From contig CP166615.1 in assembly GCA_041937175.2 (NCBI GenBank), positions 4,160,001 through 4,224,000 on the forward strand: a stretch of 64,000 bases of DNA, read 5' to 3'. The stretch's first letter is position 1. Each line of letters starts with the position of its first letter. Source of the DNA: Limnothrix sp. BL-A-16. GTDB lineage: Bacteria > Cyanobacteriota > Cyanobacteriia > CACIAM-69d. Shown here piece by piece: positions 41,712-55,392 of the stretch. Under the pieces are notes generated by a model, which did not search any database, had not been told where the DNA came from, and worked only from the letters and a program-made list of their open reading frames with translations. Position numbers and translations under genes: made by a program.

Positions 41712-43433
41712 TTAGCCCGCCAGCGATCGCTGCGGTTGTCCCCAAATCACCCGCTCATGCTTGTAAATCACTAGCCCCGGCTTAGCACCCTTGGGTTTGT
41801 ATAGATGCCGGGGTTCCGTGTAAATCACGGGAACCTGTTCTGCCTGCCGGGCCCGGCTGTAGCGGGCGGCCAGATCGGCGGTAAATTGCAAATCGGTGCG
41901 ATCGGGCTGGGATCCCGCTGGCATCCGCAACAGCACGTGGCTGCCGGGAATTTCCTGGGCATGGAACCACAAATCATAGGCCGTGGCCAACCGGAAGGAG
42001 AGCCGATCGTTCTGGGCGTTGTTGCGGCCAATCCAGACTTCATAGCCGCTGGGGGTGGTGAATTTGCGAAACCCTTCGCCGGGGTCGGGCAAGGCGCGAC
42101 GATAGCCCGGATCCTCCAGGTAGCCTTCCTGCACCAGCTCATCGCGAATTTCTTCGAGGGCGCTCAGATCCTCGGGGCCACCGTAGTCCTCAAATTCACT
42201 GAGGCTTTCTTCCACCTCTTCCAGGTAGGCCAATTCACTGCGGGCGGCCATCAGCAACGGTTCGATCGCGCTGCGGGAGCGATCGAGCTTTTGATATTTT
42301 TTGTAGAGCTGTTGGGCGTTTTGCACGCCGGTTTTCGCCGGATCCAGGGCGATGGTCACGGGTGCGCCGGTCTCGAAGTCTGGCAGGCTGATCCGATCCA
42401 TTCCCGGTTGCCAATGGTGTAGATGGGCCATCAACAGATCAGCCCGCGATCGAAACTGGTCGGCCTCGGCGGATTGGGCCAGGCGATCGGTAAATTCTTC
42501 AACTTTTTTGCGCAGCTTGCTGGCGAGGTTGCTCACCTTTTGCCGCAACTGTTGCCAAAGCCGCTGGAAGGCTTCCCGATCGAGCCGATCGCCATAGTAG
42601 CGATCGAGCAAGTCTTGCACCGACGGGGCCGATCGCTGCTCCTGCCACCCCAGCACGTCGTAACCCGCTTCCGTCCAACCGGGCGCAAAGTCTCCCATCT
42701 CCAGCCGTTTCAGCCAGCCTTGCCAAACCTCAAACAGCCGCTGCTGGGTTGTTAGCTCCAGGGTTTCCACCGGTTTCTGAGGGTCAATTTCGGCCGCAGT
42801 CAGCAGGCTTTTAACCAACGGCGAGCTGAGGCCGCGATAGGTTTTCAGCAGTTGGCGACTGATGGGGCCAGGAATCAAGGAAACCCGCTCCCACCAGCGA
42901 TCGAAGGATTCGGTTGGTTGCGGTGTGGCCTCCGTCAGTTTGGGCGGCGCACTGTAGCGATCGCCCGTTTGAATCGGCCGCACCCGCGACTGCTGGGCGC
43001 TCACCTGGTGGGCTGCGGTGACGATCGTGCCGTCCGCCGTGGTCAGAATGGCATTGCTGTACTTGCCCATAATTTCCACGTACAGGTGCCACAGGGGCGG
43101 ATCGCCCGGCCGCTTGGCAAATTGCAAATCCACCACCCGCTCCCAGGGGGCCACCTCCGCAAAAGATACCAGGGCCAATCCTTTCAGTTGATGCAACAAC
43201 TGTTGGCTAAAGGTGAAGGTGTCCGGTTCCTTGGGCGGGGCGGCCCCGATGCAAAGCCGCGCCGCCTGGGGATGCCAGGAAATGCCCAACCAACCGCGCC
43301 GCTCGATCGTCCGCAGGCAAAGGTAAACCGTGAAGCGATCGCGCTGAAAAACCTGTTCCAAGCGGGCCGGTAACCAGTCGCGCCGCAGTTCCCACAAACT
43401 CGCTATCAGGGTGGTGTAATCAACGGGTTGCAT
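41712..43433 (-). CDS. rqcH: NFACT-family ribosome quality control protein (RqcH/FbpA)
   Basis: LYVEIMGKYSN, coiled coil, NAQQLYKKYQK, IGRNNAQND, WFHAQEIPGSHV, KPKGAKPG. Confidence 0.93.
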   Translation of the reverse strand: MQPVDYTTLIASLWELRRDWLPARLEQVFQRDRFTVYLCLRTIERRGWLGISWHPQAARLCIGAAPPKEPDTFTFSQQLLHQLKGLALVSFAEVAPWERVVDLQFAKRPGDPPLWHLYVEIMGKYSNAILTTADGTIVTAAHQVSAQQSRVRPIQTGDRYSAPPKLTEATPQPTESFDRWWERVSLIPGPISRQLLKTYRGLSSPLVKSLLTAAEIDPQKPVETLELTTQQRLFEVWQGWLKRLEMGDFAPGWTEAGYDVLGWQEQRSAPSVQDLLDRYYGDRLDREAFQRLWQQLRQKVSNLASKLRKKVEEFTDRLAQSAEADQFRSRADLLMAHLHHWQPGMDRISLPDFETGAPVTIALDPAKTGVQNAQQLYKKYQKLDRSRSAIEPLLMAARSELAYLEEVEESLSEFEDYGGPEDLSALEEIRDELVQEGYLEDPGYRRALPDPGEGFRKFTTPSGYEVWIGRNNAQNDRLSFRLATAYDLWFHAQEIPGSHVLLRMPAGSQPDRTDLQFTADLAARYSRARQAEQVPVIYTEPRHLYKPKGAKPGLVIYKHERVIWGQPQRSLAG

Positions 43434-43508
43434 GGGTCACTCTCGGGCGGGCAACGGATCAAGCGGCGGGTCAGGGCGATCGGGACGATCGGGCCAATAG
43501 GCAAACCA

Positions 43509-44624
43509 CTAGGGTTTGGGACGGCGGTAGAAGGGGCGATTGACCACCTCAGCGGTGATGAACTTATTCCGAATTTGCACCTCCAAGGCTTGCCCCACTT
43601 CCGCCAGGGCCGTGGGCACGTAGGCCAGGGCGATCGGGCGACTGAGGGTGGGGGAAAATGTCCCGCTGGTGACGATGCCCACCGGCTCACCCTGGTACAG
43701 AACTGGGTAATCGTGGCGGGCAATGTGGCGATCGGGCAAGCTCAACCCCACCAGGCGGCGGGGAATGCCGGCCGCCTGCTGAGCCTCCAAGGCCGCCCGC
43801 CCGATGAAGTCTCCCTTGCGATCAAAATGAACTAACCAATCAAGACTGCCTTCAAAGGGCGTGGTTTCCTCGGTGATGTCCTGGCCATAGAGGGCCATGG
43901 CCGCTTCCAAACGCAGGGTATCGCGGGATCCCAGCCCACAAGGAGCCACGCCCGCTTCAATTAACCGTTGCCAAAACCGTTGGCCCGCCTCCAGATCCAG
44001 CATGATTTCAAAACCATCTTCACCGGTGTAGCCGGTGCGGGCCATGAAAACGGGATCGGTTCCCAGGTGCGTGCGAATCGATCGATAGAACTTCAATTGT
44101 CCCAAATCCGCCGTGATCCAGGGTTGTAAGGTGGCGGCGGCGGCTGGGCCCTGCACCGCAATCAGGATTTGCTCGGCCGATTGATCAATAACCGTCACCG
44201 CCGGATCCAGGTGAGCTGCTAACCAAGCCAGATCCTTGGCCGTGGTGGCAGCGTTAATGATCACCGTGGCCCGATCGATCCCTTCGCTATAGACAATCAA
44301 GTCATCCACAATGCCGCCCTGTTCGTTCAGCAGCACCGTATATTTCCCTTGCCCCGGCTGGAGCGGGCTGAGATCGCTGGGCACTAACTGCCCTAAGGCT
44401 GTTTGCCAGGGGCCTTGCAGTGCCAGCTTGCCCATGTGAGAAATGTCAAAACAGCCCACACCCGATCGCACGGTTCGGTGCTCTTCCATCAGGCCAGCAA
44501 ACTGCACTGGCATTTCCCAACCGCCAAAGCCGGTCATTTTTGCGCCCAACTCAACACAGGCGGCAAACAAGGGGGTACGGCGTAGCTCGATCGCGCTCAA
44601 GGGATTGTCCTCAAGGTTAAACAA
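43509..44624 (-). CDS. gcvT: Glycine cleavage aminomethyltransferase T (start uncertain)
   Basis: RTPL, FGGWEMPVQF, FDISHMG, ARTGYTGEDGFE, GLGSRDTLRLEA. Confidence 0.96.
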   Translation of the reverse strand: MFNLEDNPLSAIELRRTPLFAACVELGAKMTGFGGWEMPVQFAGLMEEHRTVRSGVGCFDISHMGKLALQGPWQTALGQLVPSDLSPLQPGQGKYTVLLNEQGGIVDDLIVYSEGIDRATVIINAATTAKDLAWLAAHLDPAVTVIDQSAEQILIAVQGPAAAATLQPWITADLGQLKFYRSIRTHLGTDPVFMARTGYTGEDGFEIMLDLEAGQRFWQRLIEAGVAPCGLGSRDTLRLEAAMALYGQDITEETTPFEGSLDWLVHFDRKGDFIGRAALEAQQAAGIPRRLVGLSLPDRHIARHDYPVLYQGEPVGIVTSGTFSPTLSRPIALAYVPTALAEVGQALEVQIRNKFITAEVVNRPFYRRPKP

Positions 44625-44833: not shown

Positions 44834-47800
44834 CTAGTCTTCCTCATCGAAATCTTCACCGCCGTCGGTGTAGCTCTCTTCCTCTTCCTCATCGCCGCTG
44901 CTGGTGTAGCGGCTGCCGTAGCTGCCACCAATGTCCTCATCATCAATGATCGCCGGGTTGCGACTCAGACCATAGGCCGCCTCAGCTCCCAGGTCGATCG
45001 TCCCTTCCAGCTCATAGGCCCGCGCCGTGCGATCGTCCAGCACCACATCGGCCAGTTCCCCATCGTCGCCGTAGAGCGGATCGGTCAGGGTATAGCCCGT
45101 GGTTTCGTAGGGGCTAATTTCATCCACCAGGCCTTCTTCGTAGGCATTGAAGCCCGTACCCGCCGGAATCAGACGACCGATGATCACGTTTTCCTTCAGG
45201 CCACGCAGCCAATCGGATTTGCCCTCGATCGCCGCCTCCGTCAGCACCCGCGTGGTTTCTTGGAAACTGGCCGCCGAAATGAAGCTGTCCGTGTTCAGCG
45301 AAGCCTTGGTGATCCCCAACAGCACGGGCGTGTAAAGGGCCGGAGCCGCGCCGGTAATTGACATGGCTTCATTCACCCGCTCCACCTGTTGCAGTTCCAC
45401 CAACTCACCCGGCAGCATCGTCGTATCGCCACCGTCATCGATCCGCACCTTGGAGGTCATCTGCCGCACAATCACTTCAATGTGCTTGTCGGAGATTTCA
45501 ATTCCCTGGGATTGGTACACGGACTGTACTTCATCCACCAGGAACTTCTGCACCCGCTGCAAGCTGTCGAGGGCCGCTTCGTAGGGCGACATCAACTCCG
45601 CGTAGTAGTTGTAGAAGATTTCCAGGGTTTCGTGGGGGTTGGCCGGGCCGTCGGTCAGCGGTTCCGCCACGTTCGCCGCTTGACCATCGACCACCTGCAC
45701 GTTTTGGCCGGCTCGAATCGGGTATTCCGCCAAGGTGCCATCGTTCTCGATGATCTTGACTTCCACCGTGTCATCTTCCCCATAGACCACTTGGGCCGTA
45801 CCGGGACGACGGGCCAACACGCAGGCTTCCTTGGGCTTCCGGGCTTCCAGCAGTTCCTCAATCCGGGGCAGACCCTGGATGATGTCTCCGGTTTTGGTGC
45901 GCTCAAACACCAGCAGCACGAGGTTGTCACCCCGCTGCACCAGGTCGCCATCATCAATGTGCAACACGGCTTGGGAGGACACGCGGTAGGGGCGTGCCAC
46001 CCGCAACACCACGTGATCTTCCCCGATCGACAGCACTTGGCCCGATTCGGTGCTGACCTGACCGGGGGCAATTTCGCTCTTGCCCGCCACCACCAGGTCA
46101 TCCACCTTCACGGTCGGGGCTTCTTGGGTTGCCACCGTCAACTGATCGGTGGGGCGCATGATCAACAACCGTCGCAGGCTTTCACCATCGCCGCGAATAC
46201 CGCGCACTTCCCCGCCGTCTTTGGCTTGGATTTCGGTGCGGGCCACCACGGCTCCCGGATCCACCCGATCGCCGTCCTTCACCAGCAGCCGCGTGTGGGT
46301 GCTGCCCTGGGTCGGATCCGCCGACACGTCCCGCCGCACCACCAGGGATTCCAAAATCACCAGTTGCAGGCGCTTGATCTCTTCGTCCGTGGGATCATCC
46401 ACCAGTTCAATATCGGCGGCCAACTGCGGCGTACCCTTATCCATTTCCAGGATCAGTTGGGTGCGCAGCAGGTCAATCCCTTCCACGGACTTAACCCGCT
46501 CACCGTCCTTGAACGGAATCCGCTGAACGGCCCGCAGTTTGATCGATCGCCCGGCTTCTTCGGCGGAATCTTGGCTCGGCACGGCCGGCTCATCGGGCAC
46601 GGTGAACTCAATCACCGGCCGCAGCAACAGCCCGGACCCTTCCGGCGTTTCCACATATTCCACACAAACCAGCTCTTCGGCCGGCAAGCCCGGAATGATG
46701 TCTTGGCCGGGGGTGATGATTTGCCCATCGACGGTGGCCACCAAGTCCGGATCATCGACCATCCGCAGATCACCGGGCTTGATCGAAATTTCCCGCAGAA
46801 TGTCGTTCTTTTGGATCACTTCCACGATCCCGGCGCTCTGGCAGAAGATGTCTTTGACGATCTCCGTGCCCGCTTCCACATATTGACCGTCTTCCACCAT
46901 CAACAGGGAGATGTCCTTGTTGATTTCGTGGGTTTCTTCGGGAATCCAAAGCAGCGTGCCCCCTTGGAGCACCTCATAGCCCTGTTTGCCCTTGGCTTTT
47001 TTGGCCACTTCCACGCCGGAGTAGCGCAGAATCCCGCCGGTGCTGGTGCGGTAGTGATCGTCAATCAGCTCGGCCACCACTTGGTTGTGTAACACCTTGG
47101 TGCCGGGGGTGGCAATCAGGGAGAACAGTTGTCCCCGATCGGTCTCAATCAGGTAGTGATCACGACCTTGGGCGCTTTCGGTGCGGATCCGAGCTTCGTT
47201 CAGCAACACCGAGGCAGTGATGATTTCAATTTCCCGGCTGCCGGCCTTGCCGTCGGCCTCGGCCACCTCGATCGGGAGGCGCACCACCCCGCCATGTTCC
47301 GTCACTAGGCGAGTTTCCGCCAAAATGCTGTTGGCTTCTACCACGCTGCCATTTTTGACCGTGGGTTCAGCTCCCGGCGGCAGGTTGTAGACTTCCCCGG
47401 ACAGCACCCAAATCAGCCCACTCCGTTGAGCAATCCGGGTGGTGTTGCCCTGGCGGTCTTTTTTCTCTTCGGGATAGACTCCATCGAACAGCACCTCACC
47501 GGCCATGTCCGAAGGCACGTCTTTGGTGGCTTTTTCCGTGGATTTCCGGGTGGTGCGCCCTTGGGCTTGCACCTCCACCAGCATTTGGCCCAGCTTCACT
47601 TCCTCGCCGCTGCGGGCAATCAGGATCGAACCTTGGCTGGCTTCAAAGGTTTCCTTTTTGCCGCTGGCTTCCACGGTGAGTTTGGTAGGCGCTTCCAGCA
47701 ACAGGGCATCTTCCCCGTGGCGGGTACGGAAGGAGCGGGCCCGTAGATTTTTGGGATATTTGACCACCCCATCAAAGGGCGCACGAATTTGACCGGCCAC

Positions 47801-48853
47801 TTCCCCGGTGAAAACACCCCCCGTGTGGAAGGTGCGCATGGTGAGCTGGGTCCCGGGTTCCCCGATCGACTGGGCGGCAATAATTCCCACCGCTTCGCCC
47901 ATGTCCACCATGCTGCCGTGGGCCAAGCTCCAGCCATAGCACTTTTGGCAGACCGATCGGGCCGCTTCACAGGTCAGGGGCGATCGGACGATCACCTCTT
48001 CCACGCCCGCCGCTTCGATTTCCTTGGCCAACTCATCGGAAATGTCTTGGTTGCGGGCCGCCAGCACCTCGCCGGTTTGCGGATGAACCACATCCACCGC
48101 CACCACCCGACCCAACAGCCGGGAGCTAATCGGAATCAGGATTTTTTCATCGTCGGTCATGGCCCGAACCGGAATTCCCCGCTCCGTGCCGCAATCGGTT
48201 TCCCGAATGATCGTGTCCTGGGACACGTCCACCAATCGGCGCGTTAGGTAGCCGGAGTCCGCCGTGCGCAATGCCGTGTCCACCAACCCCTTACGGGCCC
48301 CGTAGGAGGAAATGATGTATTCGGTAACGGTCAGCCCTTCGCGGAAGTTGGTTTTAATCGGCAAGTCGATGATTTCCCCTTGGGGGTTGGCCATCAAGCC
48401 GCGCATCCCCACCAACTGGCGCACCTGGGACAGGTTCCCCCGTGCCCCGGAGAAGGCCATCATGTAGACAGAGTTCAGGGGATCGTTGGCCTCGAAGTTG
48501 CGTACCACCTCATCTTTCAGGTTTTCGCTGGTGCCGTTCCAGGTGTCGATTACCTTTTGGAAGCGCTCCACTTCCGTGATTTCCCCGCGCACATATTTGG
48601 TTTCCGTGCGGCGGATTTCCTCTTCTGCGGCTTCCAGTAGTTGGCGCTTAATGGGCGGAATTTGCAGGTCATCGACGCTAATCGAGACCCCGGCGCGGGT
48701 GGCGAATTTAAAGCCCAGATCCTTCAGGGCATCGGCGAGCTGGGAGGTGCGGGCCGTCCCATAGTGGGTAAAGGCCCAGGCAATCAGGTTCCGCAGTTGA
48801 CCCTTACGGATCACGCGGTTGTAAAAGATGGGTTGGGTCGGTTGGTCAGCCAT
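44834..48853 (-). CDS. rpoC2: RNA polymerase beta' C-terminal subunit with the large SI3 insertion
   Basis: [65 protein letters not shown]. Confidence 0.98.
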
Positions 48854-48948
48854 GATCGGTTCGATCTTGTTGCGGTGATGGGGCCAGGCGGGGAAAGGCG
48901 ATCGCCCCGATCGGGGCCAGGGCCAACGGGGCGATCGCGCAGGCTGGA

Positions 48949-51027
48949 TTAGCCGATGCTGAGGACAGCCTGTTGAATCGTTTGGTTCAGCAAAATGCGA
49001 CCCGGTGTGGTGCGGATATATTGGGTCAGCAGTTCACCATCGCACTCGCGCCGGAGGCTGAGGGGGCGGCGGGTCTTTTTGCCCAGGGTGATGGTGGTGG
49101 CGGTGCTGCCTGCGGGAATCGTCACGGACTCGGCCGGCTGGGCCACCCGAATCGTCACCTGCTCCGGCGTAATCCGAATCACTTGACCCGTGGCCGGCGC
49201 GCTCACGCCGGCCGCCAAGGCCGTGCCTTCGACCACCACATGGCCGTTGTTAATGACGGGGGTTTCACCATTCAGGGACACATCGATGGTGTCTTCGCCC
49301 ACCATCACCCACTGCTCCCCAACTCCCTCGTCATGCTCCACGGGGCCGTTGTATTGCACCCAAACATAGGTATGAAGACCCACCTTGCCCCGATCGTAGG
49401 CGATCGTCGCATCATCCAAGCTGGCAAAGTAGCGCAGCACATCGGCCTTCTGGTTCGGATTTTCGGCCGTCAGGTAGTAACAGCCCAACACCATGTCTTG
49501 GCTAGGGGTGATAATCGGGCGACCCGTAGCCGGTGACAGCACATTGTTAGAAGCCAACATCAACAAGCGCGCTTCCGCTTGAGCTTCCAAAGATAGGGGC
49601 ACGTGTACCGCCATTTGGTCGCCGTCAAAGTCCGCGTTAAAGGCCGGACAGACCAGCGGGTGCAACTGAATAGCGCGCCCATCCACCAGAATCGGTTCAA
49701 AGGCCTGAATCCCCAACCGGTGCAGGGTCGGAGCGCGGTTCAGCATCACCGGGTGGCCATCAATCACCTCTTCCAGCACATCCCAAACAGCGGGATCGTT
49801 GCGCTGGATCATCTTCTTGGCGGCCTTGATGTTGTTGACCAGACCTTGCTTAATCAGCCGGTGAATCACGAAGGGCTGGAACAGCTCGATCGCCATTTCC
49901 CGAGGCAGACCGCATTGGTGAATCTTCAGATTCGGCCCCACCACGATTACGGAACGGCCGGAGTAGTCCACCCGTTTACCCAGCAGGTTTTGGCGGAACC
50001 GACCCTGTTTCCCTTCAATGATGTCCGACAGGGACTTCAGGGGGCGGTTGTTGGCTCCCACCACTGTTCGACCCCGCCGACCGTTATCGATCAGCGCATC
50101 CACGGCTTCCTGCAACATCCGCTTTTCGTTACGGACGATGATTTCCGGAGCCAGGATCTCTTGCAAACGAGCCAACCGGTTGTTGCGGTTAATCACCCGA
50201 CGATAGAGATCGTTCAAATCCGAGGTGGCAAACCGGCCCCCATCCAACTGCACCATCGGCCGCAGGTCGGGCGGAATCACCGGAATCACATCCAGCACCA
50301 TCCACTCGGCCTTCGCCCCGGTAGCCACAAAGTTGTCAATCACCCGCAGGCGCTTGATCAACTTGGCCCGCTTTTGCCCCTTGGCCGTGGCGATTTCTTC
50401 CCGCAGGCGCTCGGCTTCCTGCTCCAGGGGAATATCCTGCAACAGGCGCTGAATCGCTTCGGCCCCGATGCCCACTTCCACGCCTTCGAGATCCGAATCA
50501 TCGGCGTAGAGCCGATCTTCGATTTCAATCCACTGTTCTTCGCTCAGCAGTTGCTTGTAGCTCAAATCCGCCGCGTTGCCCGGATCAAGCACCACGTAGG
50601 AGTTGAAATACACCACCTGCTCCACATCGCGCAGGGGCATATCCAACAGGATTGCCATGTAACTGGGGATCCCCTTCAGGTACCACACGTGGGTCACCGG
50701 GGCCGCCAGTTTGATGAAGCCCATCCGGTGACGACGCACCCGCGATTCGGTCACTTCCACGCCGCAACGTTCGCAGACAATACCGCGGTGGCGCACCCGC
50801 TTGTATTTGCCACAGTGGCATTCCCAATCCTTGGCGGGGCCAAAAATCCGCTCGCAGAATAGCCCGTCCATTTCGGGCTTCAGGGTGCGGTAGTTGATCG
50901 TTTCGGGCTTGGTCACTTCACCGACGATTTGACCATTGGGCAAGGTACGCTCGCCCCATTGGCGAATCCGCTCGGGCGAGGCGATGCCGATCTTTACGTA
51001 GTCAAAGCGCTGCTTGAGTTTCGACAT
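48949..51027 (-). CDS. rpoC1: RNA polymerase gamma subunit (692 aa, with an extra C-proximal insert)
   Basis: Zn finger CHCGKYK...CERCG, catalytic [18 protein letters not shown] at 51027. Confidence 0.98.
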
Positions 51028-51126
51028 GGTTGTTCGGTGACGGTGGGCAATCAGCAGGCAAACGGGAATGGGTCGATCGCCCCAGAGAAGCAATTAAGGG
51101 GGCGATCGATCCGCAGAACTCACACC

Positions 51127-54100
51127 TTACTCGTCGTCAAACCCTTCACGGGCAAACACTTCGTAAGTGGGACGGGTGGGCGCACGGCGAACACCGGGGA
51201 TATCGATCATCAGGTCTACCTCCACATCGCGGCTGGTGCCGTCGTCTTGGATTTCGCTCTTGTGGACGGCGATGTCCAGGCAGAGGGATTGCAACTCGCG
51301 CATCAGCACCTTGAAGGATTCCGGCGTGCCGGGGCGCGGGATCGCTTTGCCCTTGACGATCGCGTTGAGGGCTTCGTTGCGGCCCTGCATGTCGTCGGAC
51401 TTGACCGTCAACAGCTCTTGCAGAATGTAGGCAGCCCCGAAGGCTTCCAGGGCCCACACTTCCATTTCCCCGAATCGCTGACCGCCCTGTTGGGCCTTCC
51501 CGCCGAGGGGCTGTTGGGTTACCAGCGAGTAGGGGCCGGTGCTGCGGGCGTGGATCTTGTCATCGACCAAGTGGACTAGCTTCAGCATGTAGCCCTTGCC
51601 GACGGTGACGGGGCGATCGAACGGTTCTCCCGTCCGGCCGTCGTAGACCGTGATTTTGCCGGGATTCGTCGGCTCAAACAGCCAGTCCTTGCCGGTTTCG
51701 TCGCGGGCTTCCTGCAACTTGCCATGCACCGCCAAGCGGGAGGCTTCTGCCCCGTACATTTCGTCAAAGGGCGTGACCTTGAAGCGCATCCCCAACTGCT
51801 CACCGGCCCAACCCAGCAAGCACTCAAACACCTGACCCACGTTCATCCGGGAGGGCACCCCTAGCGGGTTCAACACCACATCGACCGGGCTACCGTCGGG
51901 CAAGAAAGGCATATCTTCCACGGGCAGGATCTTGGAGATGATCCCCTTGTTGCCGTGGCGGCCAGCCATCTTGTCGCCCACTTGGATTTTCCGCTTTTGG
52001 GCCACGTAAACCCGCACGACCATGTTCGCGCCGGGGGGCAGCTCGTCGCCCTGCTCTCGGGTAAATACCCGCACATCAACAACGCGCCCCTTTTCACCAT
52101 TGGGCACGCGCAGGGAGTTGTCGCGCACGTCCCGAGCCTTCTCGCCGAAGATTGCCCGCAGTAGTTTTTCTTCCGGCGGTTGATCCGATTCACCCTTGGG
52201 CGTGACTTTGCCGACCAGGATGTCACCGGATTCCACCCAAGCGCCGATCCGGATGATGCCGTGCTCGTCCAGTTGGCGCAGGGCATCTTCCCCGACGTTG
52301 GGAATTTCGCGGGTGATTTCTTCGGGGCCGAGCTTGGTTTGGCGGGCTTCAATCTCGAATTTTTCAACGTGGATCGAGGTATAGACATCCTCGGCCACCA
52401 GGCGCTCACTGATTAGGATTGCGTCTTCGTAGTTGTAGCCTTCCCAGGGCATGTAAACGACGGTGACGTTTTGCCCCAGGGCCAGCTCGCCGCCTTCAGT
52501 GGAAGAGCCGTCGGCCAGCACTTGCCCGGCCACGACGCGCTCGCCGCTGTAAACCAAGGGGCGTTGGTTAAGGCAGGTGTCCTGGTTCGATCGCTGGTAT
52601 TTTTGCAACTCGTATTCCAGGATGTTGCCGTCCGGATCCTTGACGCGGATTTCCTTGGCGGACACGTAGACCACTTCCCCAGCGGTGCGAGAGACGATCA
52701 CCATCCCCGAGTCGCGGGCGGCCTGGGCTTCCAGACCCGTGCCCACCAAGGGGCGCTCGGGCCGCAACAGGGGCACGGCTTGCCGTTGCATGTTTGATCC
52801 CATCAGGGCCCGGTTTGCGTCGTCATGCTCCAGGAACGGAATCAAGGACGTTGCCACCGAGATGATTTGTACCGGGGAAACGGCGATGTAGTCCACCTGG
52901 TCGGGGGTGGTGGTGGTGAACTCCTGGCGGTAGCGCACGGGCACCGATTCCCCGAGGATGTAGCCGTTTTCGTCCATGGGCACATCCCCAGGAGCGACGC
53001 GCACATCGTCCTCTTCGTCGGCAGTCATGTAGATCGGCCGGCGATCGAGCCGGACGCGGCCATTTTCCACCGGAAAAACCGGGGTGGTAATGAATCCGTA
53101 GGGGTTGACGCGGGCATGGGTCGCCAAGGAACCGATCAAACCGGCGTTCGGGCCTTCCGGCGTTTCGATCGGGCAGATCCGGCCGTGGTGGCTGGGGTGA
53201 ATGTCCCGCACCGCGAAGCCCGCCCGCTCCCGGGTCAGACCACCGGGCCCCAAGGCGCTGAGGCGACGCTTGTGGGTCAACTCCGCCAAGGGATTGGTCT
53301 GATCCATGAACTGGGACAGTTGGCTGGAGCCGAAGAACTCCTTAATCGCCGCCACCAGGGGTTTTGGGTTGACCAAGGAAGCGGGCGTTAGGGAATCCGC
53401 ATCGGATACGGTCATCCGTTCGCGAATGATCCGCTCCAATCGGTTCAAGCCGACGCGCACTTGGTTTTGCAGCAGTTCACCGACCGATCGCACCCGGCGG
53501 TTACCCAGGTGGTCGATGTCATCGGTGCTGCCCAGGTCAAATTCCAGGTTGATCAGATAGTCGATCGCCGACAGGATATCCTGCGGAGTCAGCACGCGCA
53601 CTGTGTCGGGAATGTTCAGGTGCAGCTTGCGGTTGATCTTGTAGCGGCCCACCTTGCCCAGGTCGTAGCGTTTGGGATCAAAGAAGCGTGAATCCAACAG
53701 TTGCTGACCGCCAGAAACCGTCGGCGGTTCGCCCGGCCGCAGCTTGCGGTACAGCTCCATCAGCGCTTCTTCTTCGGAGAAGTCGCCTTCTTTTTCGATC
53801 GTCCGTTGGAAATATTCCGGGTGTCGCAGCCCATCGAGAATTTCCGCCGTCGTCCAACCCAGGGCCTTCAGCAGCACTTGGGCCGACAGCTTGCGGGTCT
53901 TATCGATCCGCACCCAAACCATGTCGTTTTTGTCGGTCTCGAACTTCAGCCAAGCGCCCCGGTTGGGAATCAAGCTAGCCGAATAGGTGCGGCGACCGCT
54001 CTTGTCGATTTCGAACTTGTAGTAAACGCCGGGGCTACGGACGATCTGATTCACGATCACCCGTTCCGCGCCGTTGATGATGAAGGTTCCCCGCTCCGTC

Positions 54101-54426
54101 ATCAAGGGTAGATCGCCAATAAAGACTTCCTGCTCCTTGATTTCGCCGGTTTCCTTGTTGATCAACCGGGTCGGCACATACATTTGCACCGAATAGGTGG
54201 CATCCCGCCGCTTGGCTTCATCAACGTCGTATTTGGGCCGCTTCAGCTTGTAGTTTTTGCCGATGAAGTGCAGCTCCAACTTGCCGGTATAGTCCGTGAT
54301 TGGGGAGAAGCTATCGAGTTCTTCGATCAGGCCTTCTTCGAGGAACCAACGGAAACTGGCCCGTTGAATTTCAATCAGGTCGGGCAGCAGAAACGAAGGG
54401 GTCGTGGTCGCGAGTTTGTCGGTCAT
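51127..54426 (-). CDS. rpoB: RNA polymerase beta subunit
   Basis: [44 protein letters not shown]. Confidence 0.99.
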
Positions 54427-54567
54427 GCGTCTCCTGGGGGCGGTGATGCCAAGTGCAAACCCGTTGGCAGATGGAACGCGGGCAGCAAAACAGCAGCAAA
54501 ACAACGGTGACCGGGCCTGACTAAGGGGCGAATCGCAGGGGCGATCGCCCGGCCCGGCTGCGGGGCC

Positions 54568-55392
54568 CTAGGCGAGGGCCAGGGCGGGAACGGTGGGTTC
54601 GATCGACTGGGGCAGTCGGAACAACTGGCGAGCATTGGCGCTGGTCTGCTCACCCAGGGCGATCGGGTCAAGATTCCGCAGGGCGGCTACCTGGTTGAGC
54701 ACCGAAACCACGTAGGCCGGTTCATTGCGACGACCGCGATGGGGCACGGGAGCCAAAAACGGGCAATCCGTTTCCACCAACAGGCGATCGAGCGGCACCA
54801 CCTTGGCGGATTCCTGAATGTCTGGGGCATTCTTGAAAGTGACCGTGCCGCTGAAGCTGATGTGAAATCCGAGTTCCACAAACTGCAAAGCCTGCTGAGG
54901 GGTACCTCCCCAGCAGTGCAAAACTCCCGCCGGACAACCCGGGCGATCGCGCAGAAACTCAAGCATTTCCTCCGCAGCGTCGCGGCAATGGATAATCACC
55001 GGCAGACCCAAATCGCTGGCCAAATCGAGCTGGGCCCCAAAGGCCGCAAACTGCACTTGATGGGCCGTTGATTTGTAGAAGTCGAGACCGGTTTCGCCAA
55101 TGGCCACCACCTTTGAATCCGATTGAGCCAAGGTGCGAATTTGCTCGCCCAACGCCTCTTGCCACTGATGTTCCGCCTCCAGTGGGTGTAGCCCAACGGC
55201 GAAAAACACTTCAGGGCAAGCTTGGGCGATCGCCTGAATCGCCCCAAACTCGCCCGGATGCACACAAGCGTGAACCAACGCGTCAACGCCGGCCGCCAAC
55301 CAACGCTGGCGAACGGCGCTGAAATCATCACTAAAGTTGGGAAAATTAACGTGAACGTGCGTGTCGATCGCTTTCACGGCGCGTTTACCCAC
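54568..55392 (-). CDS. tatD: TatD-family nuclease
   Basis: DTHVH, GLHP, AIGETGLD, IHCR, HCW, ETDCPFLAP. Confidence 0.95.
   Translation of the reverse strand: MGKRAVKAIDTHVHVNFPNFSDDFSAVRQRWLAAGVDALVHACVHPGEFGAIQAIAQACPEVFFAVGLHPLEAEHQWQEALGEQIRTLAQSDSKVVAIGETGLDFYKSTAHQVQFAAFGAQLDLASDLGLPVIIHCRDAAEEMLEFLRDRPGCPAGVLHCWGGTPQQALQFVELGFHISFSGTVTFKNAPDIQESAKVVPLDRLLVETDCPFLAPVPHRGRRNEPAYVVSVLNQVAALRNLDPIALGEQTSANARQLFRLPQSIEPTVPALALA

Follow-up and report, generated by a model that had tools for sequence, protein, structure and literature searches.

The gamma subunit of RNA polymerase (RpoC1) of the cyanobacterium Limnothrix sp. BL-A-16 carries near its C-terminus an additional segment of 60 residues that is homologous to one repeat of SI3, the insertion of the companion subunit RpoC2. 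The segment lies in a stretch of 64,000 nucleotides (contig CP166615.1, positions 4,160,001 to 4,224,000; hereafter the window), in which rpoB, rpoC1 and rpoC2 occupy 44.8-54.5 kb, all on the minus strand (Table 1). An earlier note on the window had picked out this segment and proposed that a sandwich-barrel hybrid motif (SBHM) had been duplicated from rpoC2 into rpoC1. Our analysis confirms that the insert is real and that it is homologous to an SI3 repeat. Taken as a whole, it is likely to be an extra SBHM domain, copied from the repeat SBHM-8, that most likely serves as an accessory surface decoration or brace of the polymerase.

An SI3-like domain within RpoC1

The open reading frame (ORF) at 48949..51093 (minus strand) encodes RpoC1. 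Translation from the ATG at 51027 gives the 692 residues counted in the earlier note (coding positions 48952-51027), and the protein is 82-100% identical to the RpoC1 of 40 relatives. We aligned the RpoC1 C-termini of 30 genomes, namely the window, six further members of its family and 23 representatives of other families. A block of 59-60 residues is present in all seven family rows and is replaced by a gap in all 23 of the others. RpoC1 measures 689-692 residues in the window family and 623-637 in the other families, one aberrant tail (L024) excepted, in line with the normal cyanobacterial length of about 625 on which the note had relied. The block occupies an acidic loop, with a conserved strand on one side and the returning hairpin of the RpoC1 C-terminal region on the other, and ten genome copies share the same site and the same length. 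The peptide on which the first reading was built (ETPV...AQP) corresponds to residues 588-631 and is indeed located between a conserved 11-residue motif, which begins at residue 554, and YIRTTPGR, which begins at 670. Pfam Rpb1 domain 3, which we take to be the 'pore 1' domain under the funnel, is divided between the two subunits, RpoC1 carrying the first 58 of its 162 positions and the N-terminus of RpoC2 the final 52; the insert therefore falls in the variable middle of this domain, just before the cyanobacterial split. The split ends, where the C-terminus of RpoC1 meets RpoC2, are described in PMC10120043, which reports very few residues inserted or deleted there among cyanobacteria.

The resemblance to RpoC2, originally found by hand, is reproduced by BLASTP with the same 16 identities in 45 columns and one gap (28.5 bits; RpoC2 residues 911-955, window 45989-46123), at an E-value of 2e-4 that applies to the single comparison of the insert with the window RpoC2. 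Among the sequences of solved structures, a profile built from six inserts matches SI3 of T. elongatus (8emb_A 461-519; profile positions 4-62, E 2.1e-12) and also RpoC2 of Synechococcus 7942 (8syi_Z 900-955, 6.4e-6) and Synechocystis 6803 (8gzg_Z 902-949, 3.8e-3); among polymerase chains, only those of SI3 fall below E 0.01 in this search. According to PMC10895346, SI3 consists of eight SBHMs, of which SBHM-2 and SBHM-8 form the 'fin', and PMC10120043 places the SI3-fin of Synechocystis at residues 884-973 and 424-478. Since the matched ranges lie within the fin, the segment in question is SBHM-8, which precedes the C-terminal trigger helix as the final repeat. When ten inserts are combined into a profile, SBHM-8 ranks as the top domain in 34 of 34 RpoC2 proteins (19.6-71.2 bits, with the other SI3 repeats at 17.1 bits or less), and hhalign pairs the insert with residues 891-958 of its own RpoC2 over 67 columns (probability 98.8%, E 1.2e-16). 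The insert is a homologue (paralogue) of SBHM-8 and is closer to it than to any other SI3 repeat. The core residues common to both comprise a GD-box-like motif, 'SGQV' and 'LR.A.P'. A Pfam scan of the insert returned no family, the best E-value being 0.04 for unrelated families.

The insert is predicted to adopt the SBHM, or barrel-sandwich hybrid, fold (HABAS, CATH 2.40.50.100). The AlphaFold2 model of RpoC1 residues 536-692 (157 residues, 28 aligned sequences) has a mean predicted local distance difference test score (pLDDT) of 94.7 and a predicted template modelling score of 0.82, and the insert folded alone (77 residues, 10 sequences) reaches a pLDDT of 86.3. VIA-align superimposes model residues 40-94 (RpoC1 575-629) on 8emb_B with a Z-score of 10.9 and a root-mean-square deviation of 1.1 Å over 54 residues, at 35% identity, while the insert flanks match cyanobacterial and plastid RpoC1 chains (Z 8.7-10.3). 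Foldseek, run with the two-domain model, matched RpoC1 chains and SI3 with low template modelling scores (0.34-0.43), since flanks and insert each have their own matching chains. The other VIA-align matches to the insert were the Thermus beta' non-conserved domain, NusG domain II, NqrA/RnfC and biotinyl carriers. A Foldseek-independent search of 48,161 chains with the insert alone returned barrel-sandwich hybrids exclusively at the top, with 2auj_D (Z 6.8) and 8emb_A (Z 5.8), together with NusG domain II, RnfC, NqrA, DUF2118 and biotinyl/lipoyl domains. The HABAS class's GD-box-like motif, given in PMC11515920 as aliphatic-x-aliphatic-polar-x-G-polar-x-aliphatic-x-x-G-polar-x-aliphatic, can be read in the insert alignment as V/I-x-x-G-[DHE]-V-[VL]-x-x-G-x-x-[LVFI]; its first G (G32) and its V (V34) are invariant in ten of ten rows, and its second G is found in eight. 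The profile matches to SBHM-8 and the modelled fold support the duplication that the earlier note had proposed, including the SI3 match and the SBHM fold that it expected of such a copy.

Inteins measure about 130 residues or more and carry splicing motifs at both junctions. At 60 residues the insert is too short for one, a Pfam search at E up to 10 gives no intein family, the residue at its start differs among ten copies (Q, R, T, A, P, S or I) and it does not end in His-Asn, in agreement with the lack of intein hallmarks remarked on at the outset. A mobile element or an assembly artefact is likewise ruled out by the size of the insert, by its in-frame conservation in 12 genomes and by contigs from independent runs that span it. 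RNA-library contigs of two studies (48927-49374 and 48985-49485) run through the insert and across its two junctions with neither joints nor indels, as does one contig of a DNA metagenome; these contigs fit an ordinary in-frame part of the mRNA. Runs from 16 studies, for the most part metagenomes of lakes or fresh water, contain a near-identical copy of the 48900-49700 stretch, six RNA libraries among them; the organism is seemingly common in fresh water.

Distribution and history of the insert

In a class sample of 401 genomes, the insert profile matched 292, of which only the eight genomes of the window family did so at E <1e-27. Their matches lie in ORFs of about 700 residues (253 in G007, at a contig end), and the weaker matches listed all lie in long ORFs of RpoC2 size, mostly of about 1300 residues. 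Four genomes gave two matches, the second of them in an ORF of 693-701 residues just upstream of rpoC2; the RpoC1 of these four is 688-690 residues long and has the insert at the same site. Bearers were counted with a profile that covers the C-terminal module in full, at an E-value limit of 1e-35. By this count 12 of the 401 genomes carry the insert: all eight of family f1, the window included, one of two in family f12, three of 39 in family f17 and none in the other 38 families. A larger set for f17 has bearers in 3 of 57 genomes and 2 of 25 genera, and the full set for f12 likewise has one bearer in two genomes. The insert is rare in the class but patchy, occurring across more than one family. 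As a lineage-specific clade marker, which is how the earlier note saw it, the insert does hold for the whole window family, but its presence in f12 and f17 breaks that specificity.

Protein collections widen this range. At E 1e-40, a collection of 5.8 billion proteins yielded 20 clusters of 688-692 residues, plus one fragment of 590 among them, annotated only as gamma or beta' subunit and bearing labels that include Oculatellaceae, Crinalium sp., Coleofasciculaceae and an unclassified marine bin; several of these proteins are quite divergent, yet have the same insert site and the same 7-residue segment farther along. The insert profile also found 23 matches in a library of 1.84 billion representatives. 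Of seven inspected, four were insert-bearing C-terminal fragments of RpoC1 and three were fragments of RpoC2; most of the other 16 show several matched stretches. This library says little about range, as the proteins that stand for its RpoC1 clusters at 50% identity lack the insert. A word-index search with residues 566-640 retrieved nine near-identical proteins, and the closest named record, from Limnothrix redekei (NCBI family Pseudanabaenaceae), is 100% identical over 86 residues. The 7-residue segment, of GKKTRRP type, is present in every bearer seen (11 genome rows and 16 proteins), so that the insert without it was never met among these, and in six of 23 insert-free RpoC1; within f17 it occurs only together with the insert.

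The inserts share a single origin. In a tree of ten inserts and 34 SBHM-8 segments they form one clade (Shimodaira-Hasegawa-like (SH-like) support 0.969) apart from all SBHM-8, grouping by family and never with the SBHM-8 of their own genome, which means one copying event rather than several. Identity is 27-44% between an insert and the SBHM-8 of its own genome, 27-50% between inserts within and between clades, and 27-44% between inserts of different families. Since SBHM-8 is found in 34 of 34 RpoC2 while the insert is rare, copying from rpoC2 into rpoC1 is the natural direction, and the one we infer. We built a concatenated tree with FastTree from RpoB, RpoC1 and RpoC2 of 37 genomes (3026 kept columns, the insert columns being lost to gap trimming). 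The bearers fall at three separate places in this tree, in agreement with the GTDB family labels, and their non-bearing sisters are well supported: G018 as sister of the f12 bearer G044 (SH-like 0.999) and G023 as sister of the f17 bearers (0.997).

One history, to which we give an even chance, has the insert gained once in a single lineage and then spread to at least two others by recombination of a piece of rpoC1. It accounts for bearers in three GTDB families beside such firmly placed non-bearing sisters, and under parsimony on the 37-tip tree a free model takes 3 changes, compared with 10 losses for a single gain. Over the 40 columns immediately downstream of the insert, G044 shares 84% identity with G369, a member of a different family, and only 70% with its sister G018; in f17, moreover, the 7-residue segment comes and goes with the insert. 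However, this flank signal amounts to a handful of residues and is suggestive only, and the identity of merely 27-44% between families means that any transfer would be ancient and here indistinguishable from vertical descent.

At slightly less than even chances, the insert could instead go back to one deep gain in cyanobacterial evolution, followed by vertical inheritance and many later deletions. The inserts are monophyletic and grouped by family, as this history predicts, and their identity drops with core distance, from 50% at about 0.12 to 44% at about 0.32, 39% at about 0.33 and 34% at about 0.49, these distances being hand sums of the printed branch lengths of the concatenated tree. Near-identical inserts common to two families were not seen among the copies compared, the upstream flank of the insert tracks the species tree, and more divergent bearers exist among the metagenome proteins. 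Such a deep gain would nonetheless require 10 separate clean deletions, as against 3 changes, and would leave only 3 of 57 genomes of f17 as bearers. That each lineage copied its own SBHM-8 independently is scarcely credible, even at a site that tolerates insertions in other phyla (PMC11515920), because the inserts cluster together and not with their own SBHM-8 and all copies have one position and one length, and chance or compositional similarity is excluded by E-values of 2.1e-12 and 1.2e-16 and by the fold match.

The SBHM-8 repeats themselves show a small difference between families. In family f1 (G000, G001, G003, G004 and G005) and in both f12 genomes (G018 and G044), SBHM-8 has one extra residue in a 'VVAG-K-S' loop (window ~46070-46090). 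This residue does not track the RpoC1 insert, since the f17 bearers are without it.

Role of the domain and related insertions

Based on the above data, we propose that a complete SBHM (HABAS) domain of about 60 residues has been inserted into RpoC1, in the acidic loop of its C-terminal beta-hairpin region. This region is the bacterial-specific domain beta'-bD4, and the SBHM fold stands at the tip of its hairpin. The segment encoding SBHM-8 would have been copied once into rpoC1, and the copy would today be a fixed part of rpoC1 in the Limnothrix family and a small number of further lineages of cyanobacteria. The domain is presumably translated in frame within the gamma subunit and would fold on its own, forming a rigid module at the polymerase exterior for which no catalytic role is expected. 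The surface location is suggested by the position in a loop and by the listing of this site as insertion-tolerant (PMC11515920). Selection would hold the fold while leaving the surface free to change, and it is this combination that makes an accessory decoration or brace, rather than a precise conserved binding site, the most likely role.

The ratio of non-synonymous to synonymous substitution rates (dN/dS) is 0.09-0.39 for the insert in six pairs, 0.003-0.05 for the core (residues 1-553) and 0.06-0.53 for the flanking C-terminal segments, one pair being not computable; no insert copy contains a stop codon. From these ratios, selection on the insert is purifying but weak, as for a domain that is kept loosely. 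A covariation scan found no bearer-specific columns in RpoB, RpoC2 or RpoC1 outside the insert, with the weak power that three independent contrasts afford. This result, together with an identity of only 27-50% among inserts, supports an accessory role.

Several points weigh against this account. Only two of the five AlphaFold2 models of the 157-residue piece score above 93, the other three standing at pLDDT 70-76, and the scores of the wide structural search are middling (Z 6.8 at most), as is expected for a domain of 60 residues. The spanning contigs cannot prove transcription. Retention in 8 of 8 family genomes under purifying selection could mean a specific function, and one that a covariation scan as crude as ours, with its few contrasts, could miss.

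Such a function might involve SI3. Placed beside the secondary channel, the insert could touch the tail or fin of SI3 or the rim helices, and thereby tune the movement of the trigger loop and SI3 or shield the channel. The insert is a paralogue of the fin repeat SBHM-8, its host region lies within Pfam Rpb1 domain 3, and published structures put fin and tail at the rim helices and the secondary channel (PMC10895346 and PMC10120043); the purifying selection and the retention throughout the window family also speak for a function of this kind. We nevertheless consider it unlikely, as the bearers have no specific substitutions in RpoC2, RpoB or the rest of RpoC1, the surface of the insert diverges fast (27-50% identity), and close relatives manage without it (G018 beside G044, and G023 beside the f17 bearers). 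An extended form of this idea, which strikes us as quite unlikely, is that the SI3 repeat was copied into the other half of beta' within crown cyanobacteria and spread by recombination because it was useful, acting as a second anchor to SI3 or the rim helices that changes pausing, intrinsic cleavage and channel shielding. If true, it would make the insert a recent, transferable 'upgrade module' of the core enzyme and would contradict the published view that domain accretion in RNA polymerase stopped early.

We consider it very unlikely that the domain serves to dock a lineage-specific protein, for instance a regulator, in the manner of other surface insertions of RNA polymerase that recruit factors. 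SBHM/HABAS domains are common protein-protein modules, as the list of structural matches illustrates, which is general evidence only, and the patchy distribution could follow that of a partner gene. No partner was found, none having been sought, and the conserved residues of the insert (G, V, GQ and R) are those also conserved in SBHM-8, so that they look structural and do not suggest a newly formed binding site. The role that we favor is that of an accessory decoration or brace.

The nearest known system is SBHM-8 of the SI3-fin itself (8EMB, T. elongatus; 8SYI, Synechococcus 7942; 8GZG, Synechocystis 6803), with which the insert shares sequence family and fold (1.1 Å over 54 residues). The insert, however, belongs to another gene and another domain (beta'-bD4 of RpoC1) instead of the trigger loop, has no linked trigger helix, is not known to pair with SBHM-2, and is rare where SBHM-8 is present in 34 of 34 RpoC2. 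It is a relative of the SI3 repeat and not part of SI3, sitting in RpoC1 between residues 571 and 632. SI3 of E. coli has two SBHMs and so the same domain type; it is placed in the trigger loop, moves during catalysis and is known to act in pausing. The non-conserved domain of Thermus/Deinococcus beta' (2AUJ) is another lineage-specific insertion that contains SBHMs, in the N-terminal half of beta', but it occupies a clamp site, is much larger and has several motifs. Structurally, 2auj_D matches the insert at Z 6.8 with a root-mean-square deviation as large as 5.3 Å over 63 residues, and Thermus beta' chains match the 157-residue model at Z 5.5-7.9; no sequence relationship to this domain was detected with the insert profile among the sequences of solved structures (E 0.28).

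Lineage-specific HABAS/SBHM insertions of bacterial beta' are assigned to seven locations by Alvarez-Carreno et al. 2024 (PMC11515920), among them (iii) the 'middle of beta'-bD4', and Table 2 of that paper sets beta'-bD4 at Prochlorococcus RpoC1 527-617. The insert is of the same domain type, in the same host domain, and follows residue 571, a comparison that relies on numbering shared up to about residue 536 in most rows. It is accordingly an insertion in the middle of beta'-bD4, a site already listed for other phyla. The unusual architectures of that study all belong to DST-group bacteria, Firmicutes and one Mycoplasmatota, and none of the 16 rows of its Table S4 is cyanobacterial; it treats cyanobacterial RpoC1 as free of lineage-specific insertions. 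Its searchable supplement makes no mention of bD4, Cyanobacteria, Limnothrix or Pseudanabaena, and PMC13114784 discusses only the nesting of SI3 in rpoC2. The note that drew attention to the insert knew of no description of it, and our full-text literature searches found none of a C-terminal SBHM in RpoC1 either, although an earlier mention in Lane & Darst 2010 or in the PDF supplement of PMC11515920 is possible. The RpoC1 insert is apparently unreported, while the kind of domain and the insertion site are already known.

The insert offers natural close pairs with and without the domain (G044 and G018; the f17 bearers and G023), which make its contribution directly testable. Extra SBHM domains are a standard route by which bacterial RNA polymerases have grown, and their history has been used to date deep branches. 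The re-use of an SI3 repeat in the other half of beta' provides a traceable donor for one such insertion. The 3' end of rpoC1, a common cyanobacterial marker, includes a presence/absence polymorphism of 180 nucleotides that lies off the species tree. To our knowledge, cyanobacteria are without Gre/DksA factors; should the domain turn out to make contact with SI3 or the secondary channel, it would be relevant to their control of that channel. An insertion within crown cyanobacteria, moreover, does not fit the statement in PMC11515920 that insertions ceased in late-diverging groups.

Gene context and further observations

Table 1 Features of the rpo region in the window (positions on the window)
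Feature	Position	Strand	Description and basis
rpoC1 (RNA polymerase gamma / beta'1)	48949..51027	minus	692 codons + stop; translation, Pfam Rpb1 domains 1, 2 and 3
SBHM insert, RpoC1 residues 572-631 (60 residues), SBHM-8 paralogue	49135..49314	minus	alignment, profiles, predicted fold
N-terminal flank of insert, residues 551-571	49315..49377	minus	conserved 11-residue strand, then acidic loop, then insert; alignment; model strand E20-23
Host-domain linker and returning beta-hairpin, residues 632-669	49021..49134	minus	alignment; model strands E107-114, E120-127
GKKTRRP 7-residue segment, residues 649-655	49063..49083	minus	alignments
Conserved YIRTTPGR strand and terminal helix of RpoC1, residues 670-692	48952..49020	minus	alignment; model helix H140-156
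rpoC2 (beta'2 with SI3)	44834..48853	minus	1339 codons + stop; translation, Pfam
SBHM-8 of SI3 in window RpoC2, residues 891-958, closest paralogue of the insert	45980..46183	minus	BLASTP; 34.9 bits, best domain; hhalign
rpoB ORF, upstream of rpoC1, same operon	51127..54504	minus	ORF list; used in concatenated tree

The window RpoC2 has a strongly acidic tail at its C-terminus (44837-44950). Three minus-strand ORFs, of 573, 371 and 274 residues (41712-44624 and 54568-55392), border the rpo operon; judged by eye, they may encode an NFACT/RqcH-type protein, a glycine-cleavage T protein and a TatD-type hydrolase.

Some other genomes have unusual rpo loci. At G014:C1:1618000-1628300 (L024 / L085), RpoC1 diverges after '...QFILTT' into a long unrelated tail within an ORF of 699-723 residues; in this 10-kb region the RpoB ORF has only 305 residues and an RpoC2 ORF was not recovered. 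This aberrant RpoC1 could stem from a frameshift, a rearrangement or an assembly error. The RpoC1 matches at G011:C80:44738-46591 and G037:C264:37373-39229 break at query positions ~151-155 within single ORFs of 679 and 697 residues, and the break would imply a different insertion near residue 153. Finally, G141 has equal-scoring SBHM-8 matches on two contigs (G141:C1:197694-197870 and G141:C3:48081-48257), each within an ORF of 1296 residues, which suggests a duplicated rpoC2 region or a redundant assembly.

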